From NCBI GenBank assembly GCA_963703155.1, contig OY969796.1:3509875-3573874 (forward strand): 64,000 nucleotides of DNA, read 5' to 3'. The notes below the pieces were generated by a model that saw only the letters and a program-made list of their open reading frames with translations, did no database searches and was not told the DNA's origin. Of the stretch, positions 9,926 to 39,504 are shown one piece after another (positions within the stretch are counted from its first letter, which is position 1; each line of letters begins with the position of its first letter). The stretch comes from an uncultured Chloroflexia bacterium. GTDB lineage: Bacteria > Chloroflexota > Limnocylindria > Limnocylindrales > CSP1-4. The translations under genes and the position numbers were made by a program.

Positions 9926-11121
9926 CTAGCGCCGCGGACGCCCAGTCGCGGGGCTCGAGCCGGCCGGTGCCTCATGCTGGGCGCGCGACTCCGCAGGCTC
10001 CAAGCCCTCCATCGCCGGCGTCACCGGCTGCTCGCGGGCCTGCAGCCGCTCAAGGACCACCTCGAGGGCGGCCACGACCGGCACGGCGATGAACGCGCCG
10101 ACCAGCCCGCCAATGGCGCCGCCCGCCAGCAGGCTCGCGATCACGAGGAACGGCGAGATGCCCGCGGCATTGCCGACGACGAACGGCGCGAGGACGTTCC
10201 CCTCGATCGCGTGGATCACGAGGTAGGCGACGAACACGAACGGGAGGGCGTCGGGCTTGAGCGTGGCCGCCACGAGCAGAGCAGGGGCTGCGCCAAGCGC
10301 GGGGCCGACCAATGGGATCGCCTCGGCGACGCCCGCGATCAGCCCCAGCAGGACGGGCGACGGCAGGCCGAGCACCGCGCAGACCGACCCCACCATCACG
10401 CCCATCGCACCCATCAGCACGAGCTGTCCGCGGACCCAGCTGCCGAGCCTGAGCTCCACGCTGTTCCATGCCTCGTCGCACGCCGCGCCCGTCGATGCGC
10501 CGGGAGGTAGCTCAACGCGAACCGCTGGAGGCGCGCACGCTCGGTCATCCAGAAGAAGACCAGCGCGAGCACCGTGGCAAACGAGACGAAGGCGTCGGCC
10601 ACCGAATGGCCAGCCGCCAGGATCTCGGCCGCCGGCACGCCGTGGTTGCTCGACAGCGCGTTCTGCGCCGCGTCGATGAGCGCGACCAGCGCGGTGCCTA
10701 GAGCCCGCGGCGTCAGCGACGACGCCCATTCGCGAGCGTTCGTGAGCGCGGTCGGCACGGCGGCGCCGAGCTGGTCGGCTTGGGCGAGGGTGCCCGGCAC
10801 CACCAGCAGGACCAGGCCGGCGGCGACCGCGATGAACGTGATGTAGACGAGCAGGATCGCGAGGGCCCGCGGCAGGCCGAGGCGCCCGCGCAGGCTGCCC
10901 ACGAGGGGCTCGAGCGAGGCGCCCAGCAGCAGGGCGACGAACACGAGCAGGACCGCCCGGCCGGCTGCGACGAACCCCGCTGCGACGAGCAGGACCACCA
11001 GCGCGCCGAGCGCCGCGCCCGCGCCGCGCCGGAACCAGATGGCGAAGTCCGAGCGGGGCGAGGGGTCCTCGGGGCTGTCGGCGGCGATGGACGCGGGGTG
11101 GAGCGAGAGATCGGGGCGCAT
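9926..11121 (-). CDS. AI-2E family transporter (PerM/UPF0118), split by a frameshift near 10490-10500
   Basis: ORF 10414..11121 gives the N-terminal TM half (...FFWMTERARLQRFALSYLP). A different frame (9926..~10480) gives the conserved C-terminal half (...LGSWVRGQLVLMGAMG...GLIAGVAEAIPLVGPAL...). Confidence 0.75.
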
Positions 11122-11126
11122 GGCGG

Positions 11127-11537
11127 TCAGCGGCCTTCGCTGAGCGCCGCGAACTCCTCCTCGTGCTTCTCGAGCACCTCGTCCGTGGCGCGGTCCAGCG
11201 CGATGAACTCGTTCCTGGCCTCACCGATCGCGCGGATGATCTCGTCGAGCTTGAGCTGCGTGGCCTTGGCCTGGCGATTCGCGCTGGCCTGGATCACGAA
11301 CACCATCCAGAACGTGACGACGGTCGTCGTGGTGTTGATGAACAGCTGCCATGTGTCCGAGAAGTGGAACACCGGGCCTGTGAGCGCCCAGACGACTACC
11401 AGGGCGACGGAGCCCAGGAGGGCGGGGAGGGAGCCCAGCGCAACCGTGACGCGATCCGCGATCTGGTTGAACCACTCCCGCAGCGGCGTCTGCCGCGCAC
11501 CTGCAACGCCGGGCTCACCGGCTCTCACGCTTCTCAT
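11127..11537 (-). CDS. Small integral membrane protein (DUF1003-like), immediately upstream of the AI-2E gene
   Basis: ...WQLFINTTTTVVTFWMVFVIQASANRQAKATQLKLDE.... A 5-nt gap separates its stop from the AI-2E ATG. Confidence 0.5.
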   Translation of the reverse strand: MRSVRAGEPGVAGARQTPLREWFNQIADRVTVALGSLPALLGSVALVVVWALTGPVFHFSDTWQLFINTTTTVVTFWMVFVIQASANRQAKATQLKLDEIIRAIGEARNEFIALDRATDEVLEKHEEEFAALSEGR

Positions 11538-11634
11538 CCGTGCACGCCTCTAGGTTCGCAATATGGAGGAGGAGAGCCCAGCGGCCAGCCAGTGCGCCAT
11601 CCGCCCGCCAGGTGTGCGTTTGGCCGCCCGACGA

Positions 11635-11814
11635 TCAGCGCTTGGACTTCGGCCCCTTGGCAGCCTTGGTCTCCGCTGTCTCGGCTCGCTCCTTGTTGAC
11701 CGTCCGGGCGGCGATCTCCTCCGCGCGGTCCTCGGAGCGCCCCTGGTCCCGCTCGCTCTCCTTGATGTGGTCGTACTGCCGCTCCCGCTTGGGCGACCAG
11801 GCGTTGCTTGGCAT
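11635..11814 (-). CDS. Small charged hypothetical protein (59 aa)
   Basis: MPSNAWSPKRERQYDHIKESERDQGRSEDRAEEIAARTVNKERAETAETKAAKGPKSKR. GGAGGA SD 9 nt upstream. High GC3. Confidence 0.55.
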   Translation of the reverse strand: MPSNAWSPKRERQYDHIKESERDQGRSEDRAEEIAARTVNKERAETAETKAAKGPKSKR

Positions 11815-11838
11815 GCTCCGTCCTCCGTGCGTCGCGCC

Positions 11839-12304
11839 ATGCTCGCGTGGTTTCGTGTCGGCCGGCGTTGCCGCAGAGGCGGGACGTGTCGCGATTTCGT
11901 TGCGGCCGCCCAACACCACGTGAATGCCTATCTGCCGGAGGTCGCGGGTCCGGAGGCGACGGCGAAGACGTTCCGGACGTGGGCCGCGACGGTCCTCGCA
12001 TTCCGTCTGCTCGGGCAGGCCGATCCGCCGGCTGCGCCGACGCGCCTGTCCCGCCGTGCGGTCCGCGAGGCCGTGGAGGCGGTGGCACGACGCCTGGGCA
12101 ACACGCCGACGGTCGCCGCTCTGCCGACATCCACCCCGCCGTGCCCGAGGCGTGCCAGCGGGGCGCCCTGCAGCGGCTGCGACGAACCCGCCGCTGCCGG
12201 GACGCGGTCCTGCCTGGACCGAGGCCGACGAGTCGTCGACCCGCGAGCTCCTGCGCCGGTGGGCGGCAGAGCAGGCTGGGAGGCGGATGCAACGCCGCCC
12301 CTGA
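11839..12304 (+). pseudogene. C-terminal remnant of a type IB DNA topoisomerase, truncated at the 5' end and frameshifted near 12130
   Basis: ...PEATAKTFRTWAATVLAFRLL...AVREAVEAVARRLGNTPTVAA is the conserved TopIB catalytic-domain stretch, and another frame follows with ...SADIHPAVPEA... The N-terminal two-thirds is absent. No start codon. Confidence 0.45.
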
Positions 12305-12368
12305 GACCCGCAAGGTCAGCCACCAGCCGCCGGGGCGACAGTGGTTCCTCCCCAGAGGAGGACACTCG

Positions 12369-13856
12369 ATGCATCCAGCACGCGAGACGGCCGCAGGGCG
12401 GCCGGCGTCAGCGCGCCCCGCGACATCGGGCGAGGCCGCCGACCACGTCGCCACCACCAGCGTCCGGGACGGACGCAGCAAGGCGGCGACACGCCGGATC
12501 GCGATGATCAGCGAGCACGCCTCGCCGCTGGCGACCCTCGGCGGCATCGACGCCGGTGGCCAGAACGTCTACGTCGAGGCGGTTGCGCGGCGTCTCGCCA
12601 AGGCCGGGCACCGAGTCGACGTCTTCACGCGCCGCGATCGGCCCCGCGTGGCCGAGGTGGTGGAGTGGCGCCCGGGCGCCCGCACCTACCATGTGCCCGC
12701 GGGCGATCCCGTGGAGATGCCCAAGGAGGAACTGCTGCCGCTGATGCCCGCCTTCCGCGACTGGATGCTGGGGCACATGGCGCGCCAGAGGCACCCCTAC
12801 GACCTGATGCACGCGAATTTCTGGATGTCGGGCCTGGTGGCGGCGGACATCAAGGCGCGGACGGGCCTCCCGTATGTGGTCACCTTCCACGCCCTCGGGC
12901 GGGTGCGGCGCCAGTTCCAGGGTGGCGCCGACCGGTTCCCCGACGCGCGGTTCGAGATCGAGGAGCGCGTCGCGCGCGAGGCGGACCTGGTCATCGCGGA
13001 ATGCCCGCAGGACGCGCGCGACCTCGTGGACCTGTACGGCGCGGATCCGGAGCGCCTGCGCGTGGTGCCCTGCGGCTACGACCCCGCGCTGTTCCGGCCG
13101 ATCGACCGGCGGGAGGCCCGGTCGCGCCTCGGCCTTGACCCGGACGAGCGGATCGTCCTGCAGTTGGGGCGGCTGGTGCCGCGCAAGGGCGTGGACACCG
13201 TGATCTCCGCCATCGCGGTGCTTCGCGATCGGCACGACCTGTTCGTGCGGCTGCTGGTGGTGGGCGGGGCCGAGCGGACGCCGAACCCTGCCCACGACCC
13301 CGAGCTGGCGCGGCTGATGGACCTCGTGGACGCGCTGCGCCTGGGCGACCGAGTGACCTTCCTGGGCCGGCGCGATCGCAAGGAGCTCCGCGAGCTGTAC
13401 GGCGCGGCCGACATCTTCGTCAGCACGCCCTGGTACGAGCCGTTCGGGATCACCCCGGTCGAGGCGATGGCCTGCGGCGTGCCGGTCATCGGCTCCGCCG
13501 TCGGGGGCATCAAGTCCACAGTGGCCGACGGCGAGACCGGCTACCTCGTCCCGCCCCGGGACCCCGAGGCGCTCGCCGAGCGGATCGCCCGCTGCTACGA
13601 GCAGCCGGGGCTGCTGCCGGTGCTGGGACGACTCGCCGAGCGTCGCGCCAGCACGCTGTACACGTGGGACCGCGTGGCGAAGCTGCTCGAGGCCGTGTAC
13701 GACGAGGTGCTGGAGCCCGGGCGGTTGCGGTTCACCACCCACTCGCTCGGGACATCCCGCGGGCCGCTCCCCCAGCGCCGCTCGATCAGTCCGCGGGCGA
13801 TCGGGATCCCGGTGGATCCCGGCCTGTCGGTGCTGCGGGGTCGCGGTGGGGCCTGA
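12369..13856 (+). CDS. GT4-family glycosyltransferase (MshA / sucrose-phosphate-synthase-like)
   Basis: ...RRIAMISEHASPLATLGGIDAGGQNVYVEAVARRLAKAGHRVDVFTRR... with the GT-B C-terminal EX7E-type region (...FGITPVEAMACGVPVIGSAVGG...). GAGGAGG SD 7 nt upstream of the ATG at 12369. Confidence 0.8.
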   Translation: MHPARETAAGRPASARPATSGEAADHVATTSVRDGRSKAATRRIAMISEHASPLATLGGIDAGGQNVYVEAVARRLAKAGHRVDVFTRRDRPRVAEVVEWRPGARTYHVPAGDPVEMPKEELLPLMPAFRDWMLGHMARQRHPYDLMHANFWMSGLVAADIKARTGLPYVVTFHALGRVRRQFQGGADRFPDARFEIEERVAREADLVIAECPQDARDLVDLYGADPERLRVVPCGYDPALFRPIDRREARSRLGLDPDERIVLQLGRLVPRKGVDTVISAIAVLRDRHDLFVRLLVVGGAERTPNPAHDPELARLMDLVDALRLGDRVTFLGRRDRKELRELYGAADIFVSTPWYEPFGITPVEAMACGVPVIGSAVGGIKSTVADGETGYLVPPRDPEALAERIARCYEQPGLLPVLGRLAERRASTLYTWDRVAKLLEAVYDEVLEPGRLRFTTHSLGTSRGPLPQRRSISPRAIGIPVDPGLSVLRGRGGA

Positions 13857-14650
13857 CCGCGAGGCGGGGCGCCCGTTGGCTGACGGGTCGCTCCCTCCCT
13901 GGCCCACGATCCTGTTCGACAAGGACGGCACGCTCATCGAGGACGTGCCGTTCAACGTGGACCCCGCGCGGATCCGCCTCGCCGCCGGTGCCGGGGCGTC
14001 ACTGCGCCGCCTGGCAGCGGCCGGGTTTGCGGCGGCGGTCATCACCAACCAGCCCGGCGTGGCACATGGCTACTTCACCCTCCGCGACCTGGACGCGGTC
14101 CGCGACCGCATGGCGGAGCTGCTCGCCGAGCAGGGCATGGCCCTCCGTGCGTTCTACGCGTGTCCCCACTTGCCGATGGGCTCGGTGACCGAGTTCGCCC
14201 TCGCGTGCCGACTGCCGCAAGCCCGGCGGCGGGATGGTCCGCCGAGCGGTCGAGGAGCTCGGGCTGGTGGCGGCCGACACGTGGATGGTGGGCGACAGCT
14301 GGGCCGACGTGGCCGCGGGCCGAAGCGTGGGATGCCGGACGCTGCTCGTGGGCCACGAATGGCTGCTAGGCGCGCTGCTGCCGCCGGGGCGGCGCCCCGA
14401 GACGGTCGCGCCGGACCTCGCCGCGGGGATCGAGGCGATCCTCGAGGACCTGCGCGTCACCGAGGATAGGCGCGAGCGCGGTCGCGCACAGCCGCCGGAG
14501 CCCGGACAGAACGGATCCGGCGCGGACGACGGCGGTCGCCGGGACCGGGAGCGCGCGATCTCTCGACCCTGGCGGGCGGCTGCTCCCGAGCGGGCGACCC
14601 CAACCCGCCTCACGCGACCCGCGCGCCGAGCCGATCGCGCAGTGCCCTGA
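13846..14650 (+). CDS. HAD-IIIA phosphatase (GmhB / histidinol-phosphatase-like) with a +1 frameshift near 14217
   Basis: TILFDKDGTLIED...ITNQPGVAHGYF...FYACPHLP in the frame from 13846, then ADCRKPGGGMVRRAVEELGL...WMVGDSWADVAAG in the frame of ORF 14234..14650. There is an apparent extra C in gcgtgcCgactgccgcaag. The start overlaps the stop of the GT4 gene. Confidence 0.65.
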
Positions 14651-14738
14651 CGAGCTGCGGCAGGATGCCATCCAACTGCAAGGGAAAGCCGGGGGCACGC
14701 CGGGACGGCCGTGGGGCCGCGTCGGGTAGGGTGGAACC

Positions 14739-15645: not shown

Positions 15646-16891
15646 GTGACGGGCCTGCGAATCGCCCTCCTCGCGCCCCCGTCCGAACCGGTCCCGCCGC
15701 CCGGCTATGGCGGCACGGAGCGGATCATCGCGGAGCTCGCCGAGGGGCTGCTCCGGCGCGGCCACCATGTCACCACGTTCTGCTCCGGCGACTCGACCGT
15801 CGGGGGCGCACGCGTCGTCACGGTGCCGGAGGCGCTCCGGCCGAGCGGCAAGGTCGACAGCGAGCCATGGAAGATCGCCACGGCCACCATGGCGATCGAG
15901 CGCTCCCTGCGAGGCGAGTTCGACGTCATCCATGGGCACCTGGACTTGATGACGCTGCTGGTCGCCCCCGCCTGCCCGGTGCCCGTGATCGCCACGTTCC
16001 ACGGCCGGATCGACCACAAGGCGATCGGGATCGCGATGCACGGCTCAGCGGCCCACCTCGTCGCGATCAGCGCGCACCAGGCGGCGACCCGCCCCGAGGC
16101 CGACTGGGCCGCGATCATCCACAACGGGCTGACCCTCGACGGCGCCCCGTTCGAGCGCCGCCGCGACGACTCGCTGGTGTTCGCCGGACGGGTGGCGCCC
16201 GAGAAGGGGATCCTCGACGCCATCGAGGTCGCGAAGCTGTCCGGCCGCCCCCTTCGGATCATCGCCAAGGTGGGCACCCACGCGAGCGAGGCCGCCTACT
16301 ACCACGACGTGTTCGAGCCCGCCCTCGCGGCGGCCGGCGACAGCGTGGAGTTCTTGGGCGAGCTGACGAGTGCGGAGCGCGACCAGGTGGTCGCCTCGAG
16401 CTACGCGACGATCATGCCCAGCGCCTGGCCCGAGCCGTTCGGCCTGGTCGCCATCGAGTCGCTGGCGTGCGGCACGCCGGTCCTCACCCGCCGGGTGGGC
16501 GGCCTGCCGGAGATCGTCCGGCGAGGGCGTGGACGGCTTCTTCGGCGACGACGTGGTGCACCTCGCGAGCCTCGTGGAGCGCATCGGCGAGCTGGACCGC
16601 GAGGCGATCCGGGAGTCCGCGATCGACCGCTTCAGCGCCAACCGGATGGTCGAGGCCTACGAGTCGCTGATGCTCCGCCTGGTCACCGGAGAGGCCTCGG
16701 GCGATCCTCGCGGCGGCCGCCCCCAGCTGAGCGTGGCGGCATCGCGAACGCTGGCCCGCGCCGGGCTGGCCTCTCCGCCGGTGCACGCGCCTTCAACACC
16801 CGAATCCCAGCTCGAGGAGTCTGTGGACGAGAATCCGCCCAAGGAGCTGGGCTGGGGACCCGGCGAGGGATCGGCCGCAAGGCTGCCGTAA
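15646..16891 (+). CDS. GT1/GT4-family glycosyltransferase with a +1 frameshift near 16510
   Basis: ...IALLAPPSEPVPPPGYGGTERIIAELAEGLLRRGHHVTTF...ESLACGTPVLTRRVGGLPEIV in one frame, then GEGVDGFFGDDVVHLASLVERIGELDREAIRESAIDRFSANRMVEAYESL in the frame of ORF 16370..16891. Confidence 0.7.
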
Positions 16892-20285: not shown

Positions 20286-20511
20286 TCCCAGAACACCGCG
20301 CGCAGGGCTCCGCCCTGCGCCATCCCCTCGTGGGAGGCGAGCCCAATGACGTACGAAGAACGTCGAACCACCGTCGAGCGGGACACCGGACAACCCGGCC
20401 GGCGACCCCTACTACCGCGCCGTTCCGCCCTCCGGGCAGGTCGTCGAGCAGCACGAGCGGACGGTCTACCGGACCTCCGGCGCCACACTGGCGGCCCGGA
20501 CGGTCATCGCC

Positions 20512-20778
20512 GTGCTCGGCATCATGGAGGCCCTCATCGCGATCCGGATCCTGCTGCTGCTCCTGGACGCCCAACGCAGCAACGGACTCGTGCAGGGGAT
20601 TCTCAACGCGAGCCAGCTGTTCGTGGGCCCGTTCGAGGGCATGTTCCGCACCGACGCCCTCGCGGCGGGGGGCTCGATCCTGGACATCGCCGCGATCACA
20701 GCCCTGATCGCGGTCGCGATCATCGAGCTGGTGGTCCTCGCGATCGTCCGCATTCCGAGGCGGACCGAGGACGTCTGA
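20512..20778 (+). CDS. YggT-family small membrane protein. It may be the frameshifted C-terminal part of a longer ORF that begins at the ATG at 20346
   Basis: ...IAIRILLLLLDAQRSNGLVQGILNASQLFVGPFEGMFRT...LDIAAITALIAVAIIELVVL is YggT-like. The upstream ATG at 20346 has a GGGAGG SD but lies in a different frame. Confidence 0.5.
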   Translation: MLGIMEALIAIRILLLLLDAQRSNGLVQGILNASQLFVGPFEGMFRTDALAAGGSILDIAAITALIAVAIIELVVLAIVRIPRRTEDV

Positions 20779-21395: not shown

Positions 21396-22200
21396 ATGGC
21401 GACGTCGGCTCCCGCCGTCGTCTCACTGGACGACGTCACCTGTCGGTACGACGATCTCGTCGCCGTAGACGGCGTCACCCTCCAGTTCCCCGCCGGCGTG
21501 CTCGTGGGGCTGGTGGGGCCGTCGGGCTCGCCCAAGACGACGACCGTCCGCACGATGCGCGGGGCCGTGGCCCCAGCCGACGGAACGGTCAAATTGTTCG
21601 GCAACGACCCGCGGTGGATGCCCCAGCGAGACCGCAAGCGGCTGGGCTACATGCCCCAGCACTTCTCGCTGTCTCCCGACCTGACCGCGGAAAAGAACGT
21701 TGACTTCGTGGCCAGCCTGTTCGGGCTGCTGTTCCCAAGTGACGGCGGCGCACCCGCGAGGTGCTGCGGGCCGTGGACCTGTGGGACGTCCGAGGTCGGC
21801 GCGCCGACCGCCTCTCCGGCGGAATGCAGCGACGCCTCCAGCTCGCCGCGACCATGGTCCACGATCCGGACCTGCTGCTCCTCGACGAGCCCACCGCCGG
21901 GCTGGATCCCCTTCTGCGAGCTCGTGTCTGGGAGGAAGCGCGCCGGTTGCGCGATGCCGGCCGGACGATGCTGGTCACCACGCAGTACGTCGGCGAGGCG
22001 GAGGAGTGCGACATGGTGGCGCTGATCGTGGAGGGACGTCTGGCGGCCATCGGAACCCCAGATCAGCTGCGGGCTGAGGCCGTGGGCGGGGACCTGCTGG
22101 TCGTGCAGACGTCTCGCGAGGTCAGGGACGACGAGTGGCGCAGTGTGCCCGAGGTCAGGGCCGTGCGACCCATCGGGCCACGGCGAGTGCGCCTCACCGT
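21396..22200 (+). pseudogene. ABC-2-type transporter ATP-binding subunit, frameshifted near 21745 and lacking its normal C-terminus
   Basis: Walker A (GLVGPSGSPKTTTVRTM) in frame 0. LSGGMQRRLQLAATMVHDPDLLLLDEPTAGLD (signature and Walker B) in another frame. Confidence 0.65.
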
Positions 22201-22202
22201 GA

Positions 22203-22364
22203 CATCCGCCGCGCGCGCGCTCCCGCAACATCGTGCTGCTCCAGAACGCGATGCTCCGCGGGCAGCCCCAGCCAAGCTGGGAGATCGCTGCGCTCGGCGT
22301 GATGTTCCTGGTGTTCAGCCTGGCGTCCTGGCGGCTGGTGCGCCGGACGATTGCCCTGGCCTGA
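22203..22364 (+). pseudogene. C-terminal ~50-codon remnant of an ABC-2 permease fused behind the ATPase pseudogene
   Basis: ...NIVLLQNAMLRGQPQPSWEIAALGVMFLVFSLASWRLVRRTIALA* matches the ABC-2 permease C-terminus. No upstream permease body is present. Confidence 0.4.
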
Positions 22365-23996: not shown

Positions 23997-24312
23997 TCCG
24001 CGGGGTCTCGCGACGGACCCCGCCTCCCCGCCGATTCGCCTGGCGCCCCACCCGTCCCCCCTCCGGGTGGGGCGCATTCATGCCCGGCTGCCGTCCGAGC
24101 TCGGCCCGGGCGCTGACGCGACGACGGGCACCACGGGCTGATCCTGTCGCGCGGACGAAATCCCGGCCGGCCACCTCGCCTGGCGCGGCTGCAACAATCA
24201 GGGCGTACGCTTCGCGCGATGCGGTCAGTACACGTCCCGCTGTCTTGGCGCGCGGGCAGCAGCCAACTTGGTCGTGCCTGAGCGGCCCCCTGCCCCGCGG
24301 GAACTCCCGCCC

Positions 24313-26679
24313 ATGCCCCGGCACGTCATCAAGGCCACCGACCTCGGGGCCACGGCGGTCCTGCGGCTGGGCGCGCTGACCCTCGTGGCCGACCCCTTCG
24401 GCGACGTCCGCCCGGACACGCGGGGTCTCGGGCTGTACCTGGGCGACACGCGCGTCCTGTCCACGCTGGCGGTGCAGGTCGATGGCCGCCGCCCGACGCT
24501 CCTCGAGCCGGATCTCGGCGGGCAGGAGCACGGCGTCGTCCAGATGACCAACCCCGAGCTGCGCGACGACCCCACCCAGCGGGCGAACTCCCCGACGCTC
24601 GCCACGCAGTCGCTCGGCATCCGGCGCGACCGATCCCTCGCGCAGGACGGCCTCCACGAACGGCTGTCCATCTCGAACTACACGCTCGCCCACCAGGAGC
24701 TCACGGTGGACCTGCTGCTCGACGTGGACGGCGCCGACATCTTCGAGATCCGCGGCTACGCCCAGAGCGACCGCGGCGAGCTGCTGCCGATCGAGGTGAT
24801 CGACGCCGGCCTCGTGTTCACCTACGTTGGCCGCGACGGCCTGGCGCTGCGCACGACTGTCCACCTCGACCCGCCCCCGGACACGATCGGCCAGGCGCCC
24901 GGCGGCAGCGATGCCTCCGTGCGGGCCAGCTGGCGGGTCGTCATCGATCCCGGCGAGGCCGTGAACCTCGCCTGGCAGGTGGCGTCGGACTGGGAGGAGG
25001 TGCCCGGCGCGGCGGAGGCGCCACCGGTGCTCGAGCGACTCGAGGCGCGGCGCAGCCCCGACGGCGTGGAGGCGGCGATCCCCACGCGGTTCGAGTCCGA
25101 TGATGAGCTGGTCAACCTGATCTTCGCCCGCGGGCTGGCCGACATCCGCCTCCTCGAGACCGGCGGGCCGCACCCCGACGAATCGTTCATCGCCGCCGGC
25201 GTCCCGTGGTTCGCCACGCTGTTCGGGCGCGACGCGATCATCACCTCGATGTTCATGCTGCCGGTCCTGCCGGACATGGCCCGGTCGACCCTCGAGGTGC
25301 TGGCGAGGCGCCAGGCCGTGGTCCGCGACGACTGGCGGGACGCGGAGCCGGGCAAGATCCTCCACGAGCTGCGCACGGGCGAGTTGGCGCGGATCGGGGC
25401 GCTGCCCTTCACGCCGTACTACGGCACCGCTGACGCCACCTCCCTGTTCCTGATGCTCCTCGCCGAGACGCACGCGTGGACCGGCGACGACGCGCTCGTC
25501 GACCGCCTGTGGCCGAACGTCCTCGCGGCCCTCGAGTGGCTGCGCGGACCGGCGATGACGCGCGGCTTCGTCCGCTACGAGTGCCGCTCCGCGCGCGGGC
25601 TCCGGAACCAGGGCTGGAAGGACTCGCACGATTCGGTTCGCGACCGCTTTGGCGCGGTCGCCGAGCCCCCGATCGCGCTGATCGAGGTCCAGTGCTACAC
25701 GATCGCGGCGTTCCGGCTGATGGCGGTCCACGCCGCGCGGCGCGGCGAGCACGACCTGGCGACCGAGCTTGAGGCGGAGGCGAACGACCTCGCCGCCCGG
25801 CTCGAGGACGCCTTCTGGCTGCCGGATCTCCAGCGCTATGCGATGGCGCTCGACGGCGACGACCGCCCGGCAGACGCGCTTGCGAGCAACGTCGGGCACG
25901 GGCTCTGGACGGGGGCGCTCGACCCCAGCCGCTCCCCGGCCGTGGCCCGGGACCTGGCCGGGCCGCGGATGTCGTCGGGCTGGGGCCTCCGGACGCTGGC
26001 GCAGGGCCAGCCCGGATACAACCCGCTCGGCTACCACCTGGGGACGGTCTGGCCGCACGACACGGCGATCGCGGTCGCGGGGCTCAAGCGCTACGGGTTC
26101 GCCGCCGAGGCCGCGGAGCTGGCGACCGGGCTGCTCGACGCCGCGCGACACCTCCCGCTCTTCCGGTTCCCCGAGCTGTTCTGCGGGTTCCCGCGCGCCG
26201 AGACCGGCGTGCCGGTGACGTACCCGGTCGCGTGTGCGCCGCATGCCTGGGCCGCCGCCACGCCATTCATGCTCTTCCGGTCGCTGCTCGGTCTCGAGGC
26301 CGACGCGCCGCGCCGCGAGCTGCGGATCATCCGGCCCACGCTGCCCCACCCGCTGCGCAAGCTCGTGATCGCCGGGCTGCGCGTGGGCGACGCCGAGGTG
26401 GACCTGCTCTTCCAGTCCTGGCGCGGGACCACCGGGGCCGAAGTGCTCCGCCGGCGCGGGCGACCTCTCGATCGTGGTGCGCCTCTAGCCAGTTCGTCGG
26501 GCGCCGCGGCCGCGGCAACCGTACAGGGTTCTTGGCGCGACGCCGGGTGTCGGCCGCAAGCGGCTCGCAAGCAGCGTGAAAGCCCGCCGCCCGTTCTCGC
26601 TGGAGCGGCGGTAATGCCCCGCGGCGGAGGCTGGGGACCACACCGAACGTCGCCGGCCCTCTCGGCGGCCCATCGATGA
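24313..26679 (+). CDS. Glycogen-debranching-enzyme-like protein (amylo-alpha-1,6-glucosidase family, GDE_N + GDE_C)
   Basis: ~790 aa with ...FIAAGVPWFATLFGRDAIITS...GKILHELRTGELA...FTPYYGTADATSLFLMLLAETHAWTGD...GYHLGTVWPHDTAIAVAGL... The C-terminal end is uncertain (open to 26679). Confidence 0.8.
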   Translation: MPRHVIKATDLGATAVLRLGALTLVADPFGDVRPDTRGLGLYLGDTRVLSTLAVQVDGRRPTLLEPDLGGQEHGVVQMTNPELRDDPTQRANSPTLATQSLGIRRDRSLAQDGLHERLSISNYTLAHQELTVDLLLDVDGADIFEIRGYAQSDRGELLPIEVIDAGLVFTYVGRDGLALRTTVHLDPPPDTIGQAPGGSDASVRASWRVVIDPGEAVNLAWQVASDWEEVPGAAEAPPVLERLEARRSPDGVEAAIPTRFESDDELVNLIFARGLADIRLLETGGPHPDESFIAAGVPWFATLFGRDAIITSMFMLPVLPDMARSTLEVLARRQAVVRDDWRDAEPGKILHELRTGELARIGALPFTPYYGTADATSLFLMLLAETHAWTGDDALVDRLWPNVLAALEWLRGPAMTRGFVRYECRSARGLRNQGWKDSHDSVRDRFGAVAEPPIALIEVQCYTIAAFRLMAVHAARRGEHDLATELEAEANDLAARLEDAFWLPDLQRYAMALDGDDRPADALASNVGHGLWTGALDPSRSPAVARDLAGPRMSSGWGLRTLAQGQPGYNPLGYHLGTVWPHDTAIAVAGLKRYGFAAEAAELATGLLDAARHLPLFRFPELFCGFPRAETGVPVTYPVACAPHAWAAATPFMLFRSLLGLEADAPRRELRIIRPTLPHPLRKLVIAGLRVGDAEVDLLFQSWRGTTGAEVLRRRGRPLDRGAPLASSSGAAAAATVQGSWRDAGCRPQAARKQRESPPPVLAGAAVMPRGGGWGPHRTSPALSAAHR

Positions 26680-31304: not shown

Positions 31305-31319
31305 CGCTGGCAGGACCCC

Positions 31320-32083
31320 TTGCCCCTCCACGTCGGCACGTCGGGCTTCGACTATCCGGAGTGGGTCGGCCGGATCTACCCCCGGCGGCTCCCGGCGGGC
31401 GAGCGGCTGGCGTTCTATGCCACGCTGTTCCTGCGGTCGAGCTCAACGCCACCTTCTACCGGCTGCCAACGCGGAAGCAGTGCGAGCGGTGGGCGGCGCA
31501 GGTGCCGCCCGACTTCCGGTTCGCGGTCAAGGCCTCGCGCTACCTGACGCACGTGCTCCGGCTGCGGCAGCCCCACGAGGCCGTGGAGCGGATGCTCGAT
31601 CGCATCGAGCCGCTGGGCGACGCCTGGGCCCGTGCTCGTCCAGCTGCCGCCCGACTCCCCCTGGACGCCGAGGCGCTCGACGCCAGCTCGACGGCCTTCG
31701 ATGTCTTCGGCCCCGCCGGGCTGCGACGTCCGAAGTGCCGTGGAGCCGCGCCATGAGACCTGGTTCGTGCCCGAGGTCGAGGCGATCCTGCGGGACCACC
31801 GCGCCGCCCTCGTGCCGGGCGGACCGTCGCGGCCAGCGCTCCCCTGAGTGGCGCACGGCAGACTGGCGGTACATCAGGATGCACGAGGGCGTGGCGTCCC
31901 GGCGGGCTGCTACGACTCAAGGGACCTCACGCCCTCGCGACGCGGCTGTCGGAGGAGGGCACGGGCGCCACGGCCGACTGGGTCTTCTTCAACAACGACG
32001 GCCACGCCTGCGCGCCCGCCAACGCGCGCACGCTCAGCCGTCTCGCCGATCACGCCGGCTTCGAGGTCGTGGCGCCATCGTAG
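31320..32083 (+). pseudogene. DUF72 (UPF0759) family gene broken by at least four frameshifts
   Basis: Conserved DUF72 blocks lie in different frames: MPLHVGTSGFDYPEWVGRIYPRRLPAGERLAFYATLF | VELNATFYRLPTRKQCERWAAQVPPDFRFAVKASRYLTH | LVQLPPD...VEPRHETWFVPEVEAILRDHRAALV | SPEWRTADWRYIRMHEG | ...ATRLSEEGTGATADWVFFNNDGHACAPANARTLSRLA. Confidence 0.7.
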
Positions 32084-32534
32084 GCAGCCCCATCCTTCGC
32101 GCACGCGGCTCCGCGTGGGGGACCACCAATTCGCCGCCGGGAGGCGCGTATGGCCCCGGACAGCCCCGGATCTCCCCCGGCAGGCGGTATGGGGCTCGAA
32201 GGTTGCGGGATCGACCGATTCTCGCCGCGGGCAACGCCGAAGGGCCTCCCCGAGGCGAAATGGCGCCTCCGGTCCTCCCGCGGCGCGGGCAAGCAGGGAG
32301 CCGGGCGAGCAAGCGGGGTCGTCGCGCGGGCGAGGCTGCCGCACCCAGGCCCAGCGCGGCGAGGTCGATCCCAGCCCGGACCTCTGCTATCCTGCGGCCC
32401 GACGTCGGTCGCCGCACGCGGACCGCGCCGCCAGCCGGAGCCACCACGCTCACCTGAGGCCGTCGGCACGATCCCGCGGATGGCCCCAGCAACGGGGTCG
32501 TGGAGGCAGGTCCTTCCGGACCGACATCGATCGT

Positions 32535-32619
32535 GGGTCGGTCGGGCAGGTGGTGAGCCCAAGGGTCTGTAAAACCCTCGCCTTCGGCTGTGGCAGTTCG
32601 ATTCTGCCCCGGCCCACCA
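32535..32619 (+). tRNA. tRNA-Tyr (anticodon GTA) with a long variable arm
   Basis: Acceptor GGGTCGG/CCGGCCC, D-stem GGGC/GCCC, anticodon stem AGGGT/ACCCT with loop CTGTAAA, variable hairpin GCC-ttc-GGC, T-arm GGCAG-TTCGATT-CTGCC, ACCA. Confidence 0.85.
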
Positions 32620-33316
32620 GCACTCTCAGGGACAGCGTGTCCGTGACTCGGTGACCAGTCGCGCGCGCCTCGGCGGGCTACCATCGCGCCAAGAGCGATC
32701 CCGCGACCCGCGCTGCCGACCCCCTCCCCCGTCCCCGCAATGAGGGCGTGACCACCGCTGGATCCCGCTCGCCCATCCACCGCGGCGCCCTGCGCGTCGG
32801 TCTGGGGCTGATCGCCTGGCTGCTCGTGATCAGGGACTCCGCGCCAAGGTCACCCTGCGATACCGCGCGGACCTGTTGCCGTGCTTCGTGGTGCTGGCGA
32901 TGGCCGGGCGGTACCGAGCGGCTGCACACGGGCTAGCTCGTGATCTCGCTCTCGCTGCTGGCATGACACCGCATCATGCCGGGTTTCGGCCCCGCGGCGG
33001 CGGACGCGAAGGGGCCCCACCGCGATGGTGTCGCCCGCCTGATGGTGCGGCTCCGAGACCGCCTCCGGGTGAGCGCCTCCGTCCGCGCGGCGAGGCCCCA
33101 AGAACGCCGGACGGCCAGAGGTGAGCCGCCGGCAGGTCGACGACCCGGAACGCCCGGGCATCGCCGAGTGCTGGCTCCGGCGGCGCTGCCCGCCCGAGCC
33201 CGAAGTGGATCGCGGAACTGACGTTCATCGTCCGATCCCGGCCGGGCGCCAGCTGCAGCACCCTGATGATCGGGATCAGGCGGATCCGTCGCTGAGTCTC
33301 ACGCACTCCGCGGGCA

Positions 33317-33468
33317 CGTCATGACGGGACGTCATCCGCGGGCGGGGCCGGTCAGTCCATGGCGGCCCGGGCCCCCGACCCGAAGCCGCCCCAGCCGACG
33401 TCGCGAAGGTCGGGATGAACCGGCACCCGCAGCCGGCGGCAACCAGGTCATGACGGACGGTCATGACG
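33317..33468. promoter_or_regulatory. Cluster of CGTCATGACG palindromes (33317-33326, 33446-33455, 33459-33468, plus a half-site at 33329-33337) upstream of yceI
   Basis: The 8-10 bp perfect palindrome occurs three times within 150 bp in a ~960-bp non-coding stretch between tRNA-Tyr and the YceI gene. Confidence 0.4.
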
Positions 33469-33583
33469 CAGGGCTCCGAGCGGCCAAGACTTGCGACGGG
33501 TCACCCGAACCCCGCCCTTGCCGCGAGTCCCTGACACGGGACACGACCACTCGTCACAGGGGATCCGTCGACAAGGAGACACG

Positions 33584-34841: not shown

Positions 34842-35309
34842 ATGCGCAAGCTCTCGCTCGTCGCGGGCGTCCTGCTCACGCTCGCCGTCAGCGCGACCAC
34901 GATGGCGGCCACGCCCGCCGCTGCCACACGCACCGTCGCGCACAGGACGCCGGCCGTCACGACCACCACCCTGACGTGGAAGGCGGCCTACGCCAAGGCG
35001 GCGATCAGCGGGTCGGCAGTCATGAGCGGCACCTCGACCTACACCTCCGACAAGGTGGTGGCTCGGGCGACGGGGATCAAGAAGGGCGCCGCGGTGGTCC
35101 TCAGGTTGTTCTGGAAGTCCGGCACCCACGACCACACCTTCGCCACGACCGCGGTGGCAGCGACCCTCACCGCCTCCGGTCAGTTCGTGCGCACGTGGTC
35201 TCTCTCCTCGACGCAGCGCGCGGCGCTGAGGGCCGCAGAGGCGCACAAGTACGCCGTCTACTTCCGGCTGGTGGACGGCTCCACGATCGCGACGGGCCTG
35301 TTCAAGTAG
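34842..35309 (+). CDS. Secreted hypothetical protein (signal peptide)
   Basis: MRKLSLVAGVLLTLAVSATTMAATPAAA.... GGAGGG SD. Confidence 0.6.
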   Translation: MRKLSLVAGVLLTLAVSATTMAATPAAATRTVAHRTPAVTTTTLTWKAAYAKAAISGSAVMSGTSTYTSDKVVARATGIKKGAAVVLRLFWKSGTHDHTFATTAVAATLTASGQFVRTWSLSSTQRAALRAAEAHKYAVYFRLVDGSTIATGLFK

Positions 35310-35368
35310 GCCAGACCTCAGCCGCCGCGCTCCCGGGCTCGTCCCGCCCGGGAGCGCGGCCACGCGCC

Positions 35369-35995
35369 TTGCCGATCACCGGCACTCCCGCCGCCATCGA
35401 AGCGCCCGAGGCAGACCCAAGCCTCGAGCGCCTTGCTCTGTCAGCCCGAGACGGCGATGCGACCGCCTTCGCAGGCCTGTACGCCGCCTGCGCCCCAGCG
35501 GTGTTCCGCTATGGCTACGCGAGGAGCCGCAATCCTGCCGACGCCGAGGACCTGCTCCAGCAGACCTTCCTGCGAGTGGTCGAGGCGCTTCCCCGATACG
35601 AAGACCGCGGGCTGCCGTTCCGTGCCTGGCTGTTTCGCATCTGCCGCTCCGTGGCGGTCGACGCCCACCGCCGCCGGCGTCCCCAGGTGCCGCTTGACGA
35701 CGCCATCGAGCTCGTCGACGCGGGCGCGGGCCGTGGCGCCATCGGCTGGGGCAGGCTCGCGGAGGTCCTGGTCGCCATCGAAGGGCTCACCCTCGAGCAG
35801 CGCCAGGCCATCGAGCTGCGGTTCTTCGCCGACCTGTCAGCCCGTGACGCCGGGGTCGTGATGGGCCGCGACGAGGCCGCGGTCCGTGCGCTCCAGTCTC
35901 GCGCCATCGCGACGCTGCGGCGACGCCTGGGGGTCGAGCAGCCCGCCGCCGGGCAGCCGGCGGATCTGCTGTGGAGCGAACCAGCACCCTGGTGA
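35369..35995 (+). CDS. ECF-type RNA polymerase sigma-70 factor (TTG start proposed)
   Basis: ...ARDGDATAFAGLYAACAPAVFRYGYARSRNPADAEDLLQQTFLRVVEAL... (region 2) and ...LTLEQRQAIELRFFADLSARDAGVVMGRDEAAVRALQSRAIATLRR (region 4). Confidence 0.75.
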   Translation: MPITGTPAAIEAPEADPSLERLALSARDGDATAFAGLYAACAPAVFRYGYARSRNPADAEDLLQQTFLRVVEALPRYEDRGLPFRAWLFRICRSVAVDAHRRRRPQVPLDDAIELVDAGAGRGAIGWGRLAEVLVAIEGLTLEQRQAIELRFFADLSARDAGVVMGRDEAAVRALQSRAIATLRRRLGVEQPAAGQPADLLWSEPAPW

Positions 35996-36175
35996 GCCCA
36001 CCGGCCGGGCGGTCGCCGGCGCCACCTCGCGGACCCGGCGGCCTTCATCGTGTTCGAGGCGCCGCCAAAGATTTGGCGATGCTTCGTACAATTGCGGCGC
36101 GCGACAGTCCCGGCCCTCTGTGCCCACCGAGCGGCGGGCGGTCGGCGGGCGCTGTTCGGTTGACGGGGAGGCGGC

Positions 36176-37765
36176 GTGGCCGAGCGGTCCATCTCGATCC
36201 GGGGCACCAGCTATCCGGTGATCCTGCCCAAGCTGGGCGATGCCCGGCTGCACGTGGCGGCCGTCACGCTGTCCGTCCACCTGCTGGGCCAGGTGGGCCT
36301 GCACTTCCGCCTCTCGGTCCCGCAGATCCTGGCCGCCATCCTCACCTGCGCGGTGATCGAGCTCTCGGTCACCTTCTACCAGCAGCGCAAGTTCATCTGG
36401 CCCGCGAGCGCCCTGCTGACGGGGAGTGGCGTGGCGCTGATCCTGCGCGTGCCGGGAATGCCCGCAGACGACCCCTGGAACACCTCGTACCTGCTCCTGT
36501 ACGCGGGCGTCGCCGCCTTCGCCCTGGCCACCAAGTACGTGATCAAGTACCGGGGATCGCACGTGTTCAACCCGTCGAACCTCGGGCTCGTGGCGGCGTT
36601 CATCGTCCTGGGCAACAGCCGCGTCGAGCCGCTCGACCTCTGGTGGGCCCCGATGAGCAACCCCCTGATGGTGCTCGCCTACATCATCATCATCGGCGGC
36701 TCCACCGCCCTGCTCTGGCGCGTGCGGCTGCTCGCGATGTCGGTCGCGTACTACATCGTCCTCGCCCTCGGGATGACGATCCTCGCCCTCTCGGGCCACT
36801 GCATGACCGCGAACTGGGCGTTCGCCCCCGTGTGCGGCGCGGACTACTGGCGGATCGTGATGACCTCCCCCGAGATCCTCATCTACACCGCCTTCATGGT
36901 CACCGACCCGCGCGTCATCCCCAGGAGTGCGGTCGGCAAGGTCGTGTTCGGGGCCATCGTCGGCGTCCTGTGCACGCTGTTCATGGCACCCCAGACCGAC
37001 GAGTTCGGCACCAAGGTGGGCCTCCTCGCCGGCCTCGTGCCGCTGTGCGCCACGCGGTACCTGCTCGAGCGCTGGATGCCCGAGCCGCGATCGGCCGCAG
37101 ACTCGGTGCGCATCTTCGCGCGCCGCGTCCTCGCGGGCGGGGCCGGGGCGCGGCCGATGCGCCGCGTGCTGGGCGTGGGCGGGCTCGCCGTCGCCGTCCT
37201 GGTCTTCGGCACCGGCGTGGTGCTGGCCGGCACCCCGGCGCGCGGCGTCGTCACCGTCAACACCGCCGAGGCCCTCAACGGCTATGCGGTTCAGCTCGAT
37301 GCGTCCACGCTGCCCCCGCTGGACGTGACCCAGGGTGTCTGGGACTGGGACCAGTCCATCGCGAGCCAGGCGCCGCAGCTGCTCCTGACGCTCGCGCAGA
37401 ACCTGGAGATCGAGGACCAGGCGCTGCTCAAGCACGACCCGTCCGTCCTGACCGCCGTCGACCACGGTGCACGGCTGGACCAGATGCGCGCGGCCGTGAC
37501 GCCTGCCGGGACGCCCGTGACCGTGTCCCACTACACCTTCGCCGACGTCCGGGTTCGGCTCCTGGTCCCGTTCGGCGTGCAGTCCGGCCTGAGCCTCGGC
37601 TTCGACTGCAAGGGCACGGTGACGCAGCAGACGTACGATGCGTCCGGCAGCCTCGCGTCCCAGCAGGCCGTCCCGTTCGCGCAGACCTTCGCCCTCCGGG
37701 CGGCAACGGGCGGTCGCTGGCTCGTCGTGGCGGCACTGGACTACGGCACCACGCCCAAACCCTGA
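36176..37765 (+). CDS. Polytopic membrane protein with a C-terminal extracytoplasmic domain. Candidate anti-sigma or sensor partner of the ECF sigma factor
   Basis: 529 aa with at least 8 hydrophobic segments in the first 300 aa, then a soluble ~200-aa tail. GGGGAGG SD before the GTG. Directly downstream of the ECF sigma gene. Confidence 0.55.
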   Translation: MAERSISIRGTSYPVILPKLGDARLHVAAVTLSVHLLGQVGLHFRLSVPQILAAILTCAVIELSVTFYQQRKFIWPASALLTGSGVALILRVPGMPADDPWNTSYLLLYAGVAAFALATKYVIKYRGSHVFNPSNLGLVAAFIVLGNSRVEPLDLWWAPMSNPLMVLAYIIIIGGSTALLWRVRLLAMSVAYYIVLALGMTILALSGHCMTANWAFAPVCGADYWRIVMTSPEILIYTAFMVTDPRVIPRSAVGKVVFGAIVGVLCTLFMAPQTDEFGTKVGLLAGLVPLCATRYLLERWMPEPRSAADSVRIFARRVLAGGAGARPMRRVLGVGGLAVAVLVFGTGVVLAGTPARGVVTVNTAEALNGYAVQLDASTLPPLDVTQGVWDWDQSIASQAPQLLLTLAQNLEIEDQALLKHDPSVLTAVDHGARLDQMRAAVTPAGTPVTVSHYTFADVRVRLLVPFGVQSGLSLGFDCKGTVTQQTYDASGSLASQQAVPFAQTFALRAATGGRWLVVAALDYGTTPKP

Positions 37766-37802
37766 CGGCCGCCGTGGCGGCCCGCGCAGCAACGGAGCCG
37801 AC

Positions 37803-38393
37803 ATGGATCGCGACGACGAGCGCCACGCCCGTGCCCACGAGACCCCGATCGTGGGCGGCCTGCCCGAGGCGCCGGGGATCCGGGTGGCGATGCTCCTGAC
37901 GCCCGGCCTCGGAGTCCACTTGCGGGGCCTGGCGGACGAACTGCTGGTCAACGACTACCCGGGCGCCACGATCGACCGGGTGGACCGCGAGCTCATCGCC
38001 ACCGCCGTCTCCGCCGCGAACGACTGCTTCTTCTGCATGGACTCGCACGGCGCCCACGCCGCGGCGCTGATGGACCGCGACGGCGGCGACCTCCGGCTGC
38101 CGGCCATCGACGTCATCAAGACCGGTGGCTCCGAGGGACTCGACCCGAAGCTGGGCGCGCTCGTGAACATCGCCCGGACTGTCCGGCGCGCGCCCCGGGA
38201 GCTCACGCAGGCCGATGTCGAGGCGGCGATCGCGGCCGGTGCCACCGACGGCGACGTCCAGCTCGCCGTCCTCATCGCGGCTGGGTTCGCGATGTACAAC
38301 CGCATGGTCGACGGCCTCCGCGCCCGGACGCCCGCCACGCTCGAGCCCTACCTCGGGCGAGCGGCGGAGATTGCGGAGCGCGGGTACAGCTGA
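37803..38393 (+). CDS. Carboxymuconolactone decarboxylase (CMD/AhpD-like) family protein
   Basis: ...ELIATAVSAANDCFFCMDSHGAHAA... is the CMD-domain CxxxH motif. Confidence 0.8.
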   Translation: MDRDDERHARAHETPIVGGLPEAPGIRVAMLLTPGLGVHLRGLADELLVNDYPGATIDRVDRELIATAVSAANDCFFCMDSHGAHAAALMDRDGGDLRLPAIDVIKTGGSEGLDPKLGALVNIARTVRRAPRELTQADVEAAIAAGATDGDVQLAVLIAAGFAMYNRMVDGLRARTPATLEPYLGRAAEIAERGYS

Positions 38394-38458
38394 GCGGATG
38401 GCCCCTCGGAGGCCGAAAAGCGGGCGCGCGATGGCGCCGGGTTCTGTACGGTGTCGGC

Positions 38459-38797
38459 GTGACCGGCTCAGCCCTCTCGGTCCTTGCCGCGCTGCGGCTG
38501 CTCTCGCGGGACATCGCGGATGGGCGGCCGGTGCTCGAGGCGCGCCTGCTCGATGCCGGCGGGGAAGTCGAGGAGGTCACCATCGAGGCGCTCCGGCGGC
38601 TGGACCGGCTGGGCCTGCCGTTCCAGCTGGGCTTCTCGCAGATTGCCACCGAGCGCGGCGACTACTGGCTGCTGCTGCTCTCGGAAGTGGTGGGCCGGGT
38701 GCAGGCTGCGGAGACGCCCGAGTCTCTCGAGGCGGCAGCCTGGAGCGTGGAAACGCTGCTGCTGGCGGCCGAGCGGACGGTGCGCCAGCGATCGTGA
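38459..38797 (+). CDS. Hypothetical protein (112 aa)
   Basis: High GC3 ORF with a GTG start. No recognisable motif. Confidence 0.4.
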   Translation: MTGSALSVLAALRLLSRDIADGRPVLEARLLDAGGEVEEVTIEALRRLDRLGLPFQLGFSQIATERGDYWLLLLSEVVGRVQAAETPESLEAAAWSVETLLLAAERTVRQRS

Positions 38798-38836
38798 GGA
38801 AACCCCCAGCGTGGGCCGGCTCGACCGGAGGAGCCG

Positions 38837-39504
38837 TCAGACACCCCAGGGGAACGCCGTTGTCGTCGTCCAGGGGCCCAGCAGGAACGGCTCCGCCGGC
38901 CAGCCCGCCGTGGAACCGGTCACGCTGAGCGCGGTGGTCGTGTCGGTCCGGCTGATCTCGAGGACTAGGGTGCCGTTGCCATCGTGCGGCAAGACCACGC
39001 TCGCTGCCCGGACGCACACTGGCATCGCCACCGAGCAGATGCGGCCGGTCGCATCGCCCGCCTCCAGCCCGGCCAGCTCCTGGGGCTCGCCATCGACACC
39101 GTTCACCGTCTCGTTTGTGGTGATCACGGGCGCGACGTCGCCGGTCTCGACGGTCAGGGTCCAGCGCTCGGCCGTGCCGTCCATGCCCGCAACGCTCACA
39201 CGCCAGGCCCTCGCCGAGGGATCAGCCAGCGTGACGCGGATGGCAAGGGCGCTCACGGGCTCGATCGACAGGGCGGGCGTGACCGGAGCGTCCACATTGC
39301 CGCTGTCGGGGATCGCGGTGGCGGCGGGAATCGCCGGCGACGCGGCGGGGGTCGGGACGGGGGTGGCGGCCGATCCGGTGGCGACAGGCGTCGAGGTGGG
39401 CGAGGAAGCGGAGCGACCGGCGCGGCGGGCGCGGCGGGGATGCCCGAGCACGCGGCGACAGCGAGCGCGACGAGGAGGGCGGCGGGCGTCAGACGCGGGG
39501 ACAT
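38837..39504 (-). CDS. Lipoprotein with a frameshift in the Pro/Ala-rich linker near 39400-39440
   Basis: MSPRLTPAALLVALAVAACSG (lipobox) in one frame. The C-terminal domain ...GNVDAPVTPALSIEPVSALAIRVTLADPSARAWRVSVAGMDGTAERWTLTVETGDVAPVITTNETVNG... is in another frame. Confidence 0.55.

Follow-up and report, generated by a model that had tools for sequence, protein, structure and literature searches.

The question raised by this stretch of DNA is whether its many genes that can be read only with a change of frame are broken in the organism or only in its assembly. The stretch, here referred to as the window, is 64 kb in size with 73% GC throughout and was taken from a single 4,153,430-bp contig of an uncultured soil Limnocylindria (Chloroflexota). 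Frame changes were found within recognisable domains of ten genes or gene remnants and in one further gene, that of a glycogen-debranching-type enzyme. Taken literally, the window would speak for a massive and recent wave of pseudogenisation, a remarkable thing for a bacterium that lives freely in soil. Based on the comparison with related genomes we would rather give another answer. Most of the disruptions are probably consensus indel errors that arose in a long-read metagenome assembly, and only two loci are ordinary pseudogenes, namely an ABC-2-type exporter operon and the remnant of a type IB topoisomerase (TopIB).

Frame calling and related genomes

Reading frames were called with a codon log-likelihood model trained on long open reading frames (ORFs) and a seven-state Viterbi segmentation, together with a phase plot of the GC content at third codon positions (GC3). 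Split domains were tested by Pfam scans of the separate fragments. The events were placed with a custom frameshift-aware protein-to-DNA aligner against orthologs and by nucleotide alignments to relatives. An earlier reading of the letters, here named the original prediction, had described a high density of frame-disrupted genes. The frame changes it described coincide with same-strand frame switches in both the Viterbi segmentation and the GC3 phase plot, and the switches, the split Pfam domains and the frameshift-aware alignments together confirmed that disrupted genes are numerous in the window.

With the repaired ATPase of the ABC-2 operon as query, orthologs at 74-84% identity were found, and the contigs carrying them were syntenic with the window. 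The nucleotide identity of the relatives across contigs ranged from 72 to 90%. L161, L163/L166 and L165 are apparently short-read assemblies.

L161: 17-kb Logan contig, ~79% nucleotide identity, spanning 12.8-23.2 kb of the window
L162: 133-kb contig of GCA_046328185.1, ~72% identity, patchy over 11.9-38.4 kb
L163/L166: 24-kb contig of GCA_054641115.1, 85-90% identity, spanning 39.5-58.3 kb
L165: 5-kb Joint Genome Institute (JGI) contig with the debranching enzyme and DUF72, reached via the stitched DUF72 protein

The window's own gene calls are present in the public protein collection, all from its one contig, for which NCBI and ENA list no protein accessions. Among species-representative genomes scanned with the debranching enzyme, the nearest class was 'Candidatus Limnocylindria', the best representative having 59% amino-acid identity. 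The histidine kinase had no match above 41% identity in a scan of metagenome contigs.

Orthologs of the disrupted genes

The original prediction had proposed related genomes as a check. At all six comparable loci (HAD phosphatase, GT1 glycosyltransferase, YggT-like protein, debranching enzyme, DUF72 and comEA) single-frame orthologs were present in L161, L163/L166 or L165, and the same was found for the ATPase and the permease of the ABC-2 operon. At 72-93% identity these orthologs read in one frame at every compared site. The shifts are private to this assembly, none of them being common to any relative.

In each singly-hit gene the lesion is a one-base indel, with the exception of the YggT-like gene (net -5 nt). 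The indel sites (C to CC, C into GGG, CCCG to CCC, GG to GGG and one C4 run as the longest) had no sequence motif in common, and none of them lay in a long homopolymer. Genes disrupted by an insertion sequence (IS) were not seen in the window. The only stop-codon change outside the ABC-2 operon affects nadD and trims its last 11 codons.

The DUF72 locus

One gene carried a whole cluster of indels:

31311..32080, + strand: DUF72 (YecE-like) gene with about ten one-base indels, beside tRNA-Tyr

When aligned to the intact gene of L165, seven bases were missing (31430, 31621, 31632, 31656, ~31687, 31895 and 31931) and three were extra (~31693, 31728 and 31813). At least four shifts had been expected here from the sequence alone, which turned out to be an understatement, since 7 to 10 events lie between 31430 and 31931. 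The stitched protein can nevertheless be aligned along 100% of its length with intact 255-aa orthologs, to which it is 85-86% identical (P0322: 85%). Those at 85% identity came from five different sources, and intact orthologs were present in the range of 80-85%. The stitched reading path contained no stop codon, its dN/dS was 0.18, and the nucleotide identity to L165 was 85% in DUF72 compared with 88% in the neighbouring debranching enzyme gene.

Natural mutation in bacteria yields roughly one indel per ten substitutions. Ten indels in DUF72 should therefore have brought about 100 extra substitutions, most of them nonsynonymous, and at most about twenty were seen. Natural decay does not yield this combination of many indels with a conserved protein.

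The DUF72 gene of L162 (16186-17121) carries about seven indels as well, at positions other than those in the window. Over their first 110 residues the stitched proteins of the window and of L162 are ~88% identical, a higher conservation than in any intact gene common to both genomes. Since purifying selection on DUF72 is strong, decay without substitutions is not possible twice independently, and the indels are best read as artefacts. The gene, which lies just upstream of tRNA-Tyr and has a variable island as its neighbour, is indel-ridden in two independent assemblies. This double clustering could be a coincidence; it could also reflect low coverage at a junction that varies among strains, or a problem of base calling peculiar to this locus. 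An 84-aa DUF72 fragment (P0138) that appeared to support one of the shifts independently was rejected, because it is the window's own gene call.

Genes with a single frame change

Outside DUF72 and the two decayed loci, the following genes were affected:

1..2877, - strand: dnaE2 (error-prone DNA polymerase III alpha); N-terminal part 700-2877 and C-terminal part 1-699, running off the window, in different frames
9987..11130, - strand: AI-2E family transporter; one base missing near 10493
13984..14465, + strand: HAD-IIIA (GmhB-like) phosphatase; extra C at 14210 (TG[C]CGAC)
15655..16685, + strand: GT4/GT1 glycosyltransferase (GT1); extra C at 16523 (CCGG[C]GAGG)
20346..20778, + strand: YggT-like membrane protein; ATG at 20346, net -5 nt near 20392 in the variable N-terminal tail
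24253..26488, + strand: glycogen-debranching-type enzyme; extra G at 26457-26459 (GG to GGG; GC[G]GGCGAC)
38874..39504, - strand: lipoprotein; signal peptide and lipobox (MSPRLTPAALLVALAVAAC, from ATG 39504) in one frame, mature part in the -1 frame
51445..52135, + strand: comEA; extra base at 52100 (CCCT[C]TGCG), eleven codons ahead of the native TGA

The frame changes proposed for the AI-2E transporter, TopIB, GT1, the ABC-2 ATPase and dnaE2 were all recovered as split or truncated Pfam matches and, except for dnaE2, in alignments to orthologs. In the AI-2E transporter, positions 6-173 of AI-2E_transport lie in one frame and positions 180-325 in the other. When aligned to its ortholog in L012 and to P0001/P0002, all of them distant homologs with 33-35% identity, the gene showed a single event at 10470-10495. 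The Pfam match of GT1 to Glycos_transf_1 ends at profile position 130 of 172, at the junction. One event was found in this gene against L002 (52% identity) as well as against L161, to which the core is 86% identical (dN/dS 0.16).

In dnaE2, the PHP domain and positions 2-182 of DNA_pol3_alpha were found in one frame, and positions 183-260 together with the finger domain in the other. The shift lies within 594-1018, inside a low-complexity insert where both frames are open. This Ala/Gly/Pro/Arg-rich insert of ~230-300 aa is located between DNA_pol3_alpha positions 182 and 183 (window ~700-1260, - strand). It could represent a loop specific to the lineage or conceal additional frame errors.

The N- and C-terminal Pfam halves of the HAD phosphatase lie in different frames, and all HAD motifs are retained. 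Its ortholog in L161 (171 aa, 72% identity) reads in one frame, with a dN/dS of 0.20. The extra C suspected in this gene is exactly the base at 14210, as placed by the alignments to L161. The YggT-like protein, named with reserve in the original prediction, was recognised as such by its L161 ortholog (145 aa, 81% identity), which aligns over the full length with one frame change (dN/dS 0.32).

The lost stop of comEA was traced to the additional base at 52100 by the L163 ortholog, nucleotide alignment and three-frame reading. The gene has thereby lost its native end ...GAATLAKIRALVTVGG-TGA, whose TGA overlaps the ATG of comEC, and its ORF continues in frame into comEC as a fusion. The ortholog in L163 (229 aa, 91% identity) ends exactly at the native stop, and dN/dS was 0.09. 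For the lipoprotein, the evidence of a frame change comes from the sequence only: reading in three frames and the segmentation by codon usage place it at 39380-39430, in a Pro/Ala-rich linker. No homolog of the lipoprotein was found, and it is the least certain of the frameshift calls.

Long genes had been regarded as intact. This holds true for leuS, rho and obg, but not for the debranching enzyme, which is frameshifted near its 3' end. Compared with the 745-aa ortholog of L165, to which it is 90% identical, this gene shows one event, the extra G at 26457-26459. The insertion is located nine codons ahead of the native TAG (26486-26488), so that the ORF now extends to 26679; the matches of the relatives all end at about query residue 719.

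Selection on the broken genes

Amino-acid changes found only in the window and only in L161 were counted in a relative-rate test with L162 as the outgroup. The window/L161 counts of the broken genes were 15/12 (HAD phosphatase), 17/11 (GT1), 10/6 (YggT-like) and 13/13 (ABC-2 ATPase), and those of the intact genes were 53/39 (histidine kinase), 5/11 (GT_a) and 1/2 (response regulator). No significant lineage-specific acceleration was found in any gene compared. Pairwise dN/dS, also proposed beforehand as a check, was 0.09-0.32 for broken genes and 0.09 to 0.35 for intact neighbours, with overlapping ranges. The breakage is either very recent relative to the divergence of 10-20%, or absent from the organism itself.

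Frameshifts in other assemblies

The same caller made 7 calls in the 64 kb of the window and 14 calls in 598 kb of other, mostly short-read, relatives, which corresponds to an about five-fold lower density. Six Nanopore-only loci of the Microflora Danica catalogue gave 19 calls in 120 kb. Essential genes are split in these Nanopore metagenome-assembled genomes (MAGs): prfA in L063, the PBP2 gene in L012 and, over three frames, rodA in L012. In addition, prmC of L012 carries five one-base insertions within 0.6 kb while its ortholog in L063 is intact, and the debranching enzyme is split in both L012 and L063. As in the window, the error contexts in L012 are non-homopolymer. In L162, the histidine kinase and a membrane protein carry five shifts each, at places that are intact in the window and in L161.

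The Microflora Danica catalogue was assembled with Flye and one Medaka round from Nanopore reads only, and its authors report Nanopore-associated errors at low coverage (PMC12313526). In a Nanopore-only consensus, indels fragment gene calls, notably below ~40-fold coverage (PMC9262707; PMC12007338). Scattered single shifts together with an occasional dense cluster between intact genes are the known error pattern for such genomes.

Overall, the window shares with long-read (Nanopore or PacBio CLR) indel errors, as addressed by IDEEL-type tests, the one-base indels which split conserved genes, are private to one assembly and come without substitutions. They are scattered and in addition locally clustered, as in the Nanopore-only loci L012 and L063. 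The window differs in having no long homopolymers at these sites and no frameshifted essential gene within 64 kb.

Frameshifted gene calls are widespread in public collections, beyond Nanopore data. The public DUF72 proteins P0139, P0143, P0150 and P0166 from high-GC metagenomes have out-of-frame C-termini, reading 'SSTTT' for the expected 'FFNND'. A split debranching enzyme was also present in the Illumina MAG locus L014.

The ABC-2 operon and the TopIB remnant

Several lesions were found in the ABC-2 operon and in TopIB, compared with one indel each in the HAD phosphatase, GT1, the YggT-like gene, the AI-2E transporter, comEA and the debranching enzyme.

21396..22229, + strand: ABC-2-type ATPase remnant; genuine pseudogene with several lesions
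22221..22363, + strand: ABC-2 permease tail; last 47 codons, aligning to residues 347-394 of the 394-aa L161 permease with 74% identity
11918..12297, + strand: TopIB remnant; genuine pseudogene, 5'-truncated at 11918, with a further shift before the stop at 12297

The ATPase of L161 is intact (379 aa, 84% identity) and has the Walker A motif GPSGSGKTT. In the window, GGC is changed to CCC at 21531-21533, which replaces the invariant Gly with Pro in a 27-nt stretch otherwise identical to L161. Further downstream a G is missing near 21737 (CCC[-]AAG), followed by an in-frame TGA at 21740-21742 where L161 has CGG. The Pfam match to ABC_tran is accordingly split, with positions 2-79 in one frame and 87-137 in the other. 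In addition, a 1,352-bp deletion was detected with its junction near 22228 and a 3-base GCA microhomology (in blastn, L161 jumps from 10833 to 12186). The deletion takes residues 279-379 of the ATPase (the C-terminal 101) and residues 1-346 of the permease. The permease tail was confirmed by L161 only and not by distant loci. Since the ATPase showed no acceleration, with 13 vs 13 lineage-specific changes and a dN/dS of 0.15, its decay is recent. A Gln in the H-loop was rejected as a further lesion, because it is native to the subfamily.

The GG to CC change within Walker A turns GGGCTCGGGC into the inverted repeat GGGCTCGCCC (21531-21533). Judged by this pattern, the tandem change looks like a template-switch (quasi-palindrome) mutation.

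Of TopIB, only positions 136-203 of the 228 positions of Topoisom_I are left. One nucleotide is missing near 12118, and the catalytic Tyr is changed to Asp (TAC to GAC). L162 retains more of the upstream sequence and the motif ARNAYIHP. An 8-nt deletion of the Tyr codon was considered and rejected in favour of the -1 nt and the TAC to GAC change, based on the L162 alignment and three-frame reading.

A large deletion, a truncation, active-site changes and an in-frame stop cannot be created by a polisher. The ABC-2 operon and TopIB are genuinely decayed, by ordinary evolutionary events. The window also lacks the small genes s76, p125, p80 and p92, all of which are present in both L161 and L162.

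Origin of the single-base events

The original prediction had left the choice between pseudogenisation and indel errors. Pseudogenisation is the preferred reading of the ABC-2 operon and TopIB only. At most other sites errors are favoured because of the intact short-read orthologs, the lack of acceleration, the ordinary dN/dS, the about ten indels of DUF72 that lack matching substitutions and the split essential genes of Nanopore MAGs. We infer error rather than very recent mutation as the cause of the single-base events. An assembler or polisher would have mis-counted single bases in GC-rich sequence and left a local stretch of ~0.6 kb in poor quality, which covers DUF72 and adjoins tRNA-Tyr; the small amount of real decay, in the ABC-2 exporter operon and the TopIB remnant, would lie on top of this. 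The HAD phosphatase, GT1, the YggT-like protein, the debranching enzyme, DUF72 and comEA are then probably intact in the organism. By extension from these compared genes, the same is probably true for the AI-2E transporter, dnaE2 and the lipoprotein.

Several points speak against consensus errors. None of the events lies in a long homopolymer, C4 being the longest run, so that the classic signature of Nanopore R9 or PacBio is absent. This is not decisive, since the Nanopore errors in L012 are also non-homopolymer. No frameshift was found in the essential genes leuS, rho, obg, holA, rsfS, pyrG and nadD or in the three tRNAs. At the observed rate only ~1.6 hits are expected in these ~10 kb, and zero has a chance of ~20% under random errors. 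Two of the about nine single events (debranching enzyme and comEA) are placed in the last 9-12 codons, for which p is ~0.03 under uniform errors, and such a 3'-terminal placement is what selection on real mutations would give. Real lineage-specific decay did occur in the region, as seen from the ABC-2 deletion, the TopIB truncation and the losses of small genes. Furthermore, the size of the contig (4.15 Mb) points to a decent coverage, and fewer errors than seen here would then be expected of current Nanopore chemistry. The reading of the genome as a long-read MAG was itself drawn from a single feature, the size of this contig. Given the spared essential genes, the 3'-terminal positions and the changed stop of nadD, some of the single shifts may be real polymorphisms.

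The strongest alternative is genuine, very recent and ongoing pseudogenisation. Here, accessory genes would lately have been freed from purifying selection, each single shift would be the first inactivating mutation of its gene, and the same process would have reached the ABC-2 operon and TopIB slightly earlier. We consider this possible, yet rather doubtful. It would account for the presence in one region of a multi-lesion ABC-2 operon, a truncated TopIB with Tyr changed to Asp, and the loss of s76, p125, p80 and p92 relative to L161 and L162. It is also consistent with events that all fall in accessory genes and outside long homopolymers, with two shifts at harmless 3'-terminal sites and with the real-looking stop substitution of nadD, 11 codons before the end in relatives. 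It cannot, however, fit DUF72 with about ten indels, almost no excess substitutions and a dN/dS of 0.18, and no broken gene is accelerated. No lesion is common to any relative, even DUF72 of L162 being broken elsewhere in the gene. The single lesions are one-base indels except in the YggT-like gene, without any nonsense-only or IS-disrupted genes. In a free-living bacterium from soil, whose genome is 4 Mb in size, fresh inactivation of ~15% of the genes would be extraordinary. Finally, the same pattern affects essential genes in related long-read MAGs, where it is necessarily due to error.

Pseudogene-rich genomes are known from reductive evolution, such as those of Mycobacterium leprae, Sodalis glossinidius and Shigella. 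The window has interrupted accessory genes, two multi-lesion loci and deletions of small genes in common with them. It differs in showing no excess of amino-acid changes, no IS elements and no nonsense-only pseudogenes, and in an indel-to-substitution ratio of DUF72 far above the natural one. The lineage is also a free-living one from soil, with a 4-Mb genome and a coding density of ~85%.

A variant in which the shifts are real as well would be a very recent burst of gene inactivation with an unusually indel-biased mutation spectrum. The mutasome gene dnaE2 would be among the casualties, and DUF72 would be a true indel hotspot or contain DNA chemistry that derails nanopore base calling, struck independently in two related genomes. 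This we regard as unlikely.

A special case of an artefact would be a consensus of mixed strains. The contig would thread through related strains and the polisher would yield a chimeric, indel-ridden consensus at variable places, due to heterogeneity of the population rather than read error or low coverage. In agreement with this, the DUF72 cluster borders on tRNA-Tyr and on 3.5 kb of sequence that L162 lacks, L162 has its own indel cluster in DUF72, and gene content varies on both sides among close relatives. The usual outcome of strain mixing, however, is substitutions and structural breaks instead of runs of one-base indels, and no obvious variable junction lies close to the scattered single events. 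As the main cause it appears very improbable.

Programmed ribosomal frameshifting, or another recoding that restores the frames, is effectively refuted by orthologs which are unshifted at 72-93% identity at every compared site. The shifts are +1/-1 inside genes with open downstream frames, as is the case for prfB, dnaX and IS3-family transposases, and nothing more specific speaks for it. In those known systems the frameshifts are conserved in orthologs and occur at defined slippery sites, whereas no common slippery motif was found here and DUF72 would require about ten successive shifts in both directions.

If errors prevail, many split or run-on proteins are to be expected among the gene calls of this genome and of related long-read, high-GC Chloroflexota MAGs. 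Some of them are already in public databases, for example the above-mentioned fragment P0138. Pseudogene counts, metabolic reconstructions and completeness estimates should be made only after polishing or with frameshift-aware annotation.

Other regions and rejected frameshift candidates

Downstream of DUF72, 1.5 kb (32073-33575) had no coding signal in any frame at a coding-like GC content of 71-77%, and contained an intact tRNA-Tyr (32535-32619); nothing else was recognisable there. This stretch may be decayed former coding sequence or the remnant of an island.

Between the GGDEF/HD-GYP and YgjP-like genes, a 7.7-kb block of L163 (11773-19000) is absent from the window (~40530-40600). It encodes a radical-SAM/SPASM protein, two HEAT-repeat proteins and an AAA_28 protein. 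Conversely, the stretch between the aldolase and the cupin gene (around 46644-46909) is absent from L163. By eye, 46644-46909 appears to encode a C-terminal fragment of a GNAT-type acetyltransferase (~88 aa) whose N-terminal half is missing; no Pfam domain matched it at E <= 0.01. The fragment is probably a genuine remnant as well.

An ORF of 830 aa (6743-9235) was discarded as a candidate for leuS, since it is a run-on over imuA' and imuB. The intact leuS is located at 42583-45133. A mutasome cassette on the - strand consists of imuA' (8146-9024), imuB (6746-8113) and a very widely conserved 82-aa ORF (6501-6746) with 273 cluster members at >=90% identity; dnaE2 is not adjacent but 3.6 kb away. 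The frame of imuA' passes the start of imuB by 286 nt without a stop. The same run-on is present in the Illumina contig of a relative (L169), and the imuA'/imuB junction (8145) was therefore rejected as a frameshift.

The frame of comEC (52136-54897) remains open until 54897 and overlaps the HD-domain gene (54581-55279, ATG at 54581) by ~300 nt. A lost C in a C5 run at the 3' end of comEC (54568) was refuted, as L166 is collinear without an indel. In L166, comEC has no protein call, and the HD-domain gene was called with an out-of-frame N-terminal extension of 60 aa.

The stop codon of nadD at 57320-57322 is specific to the window. Five relatives read Gly at this position and continue for another 10 codons, so that their protein has 226 aa, compared with 215 aa in the window. 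The change is a real-looking substitution in the extreme 3' end of an essential gene.

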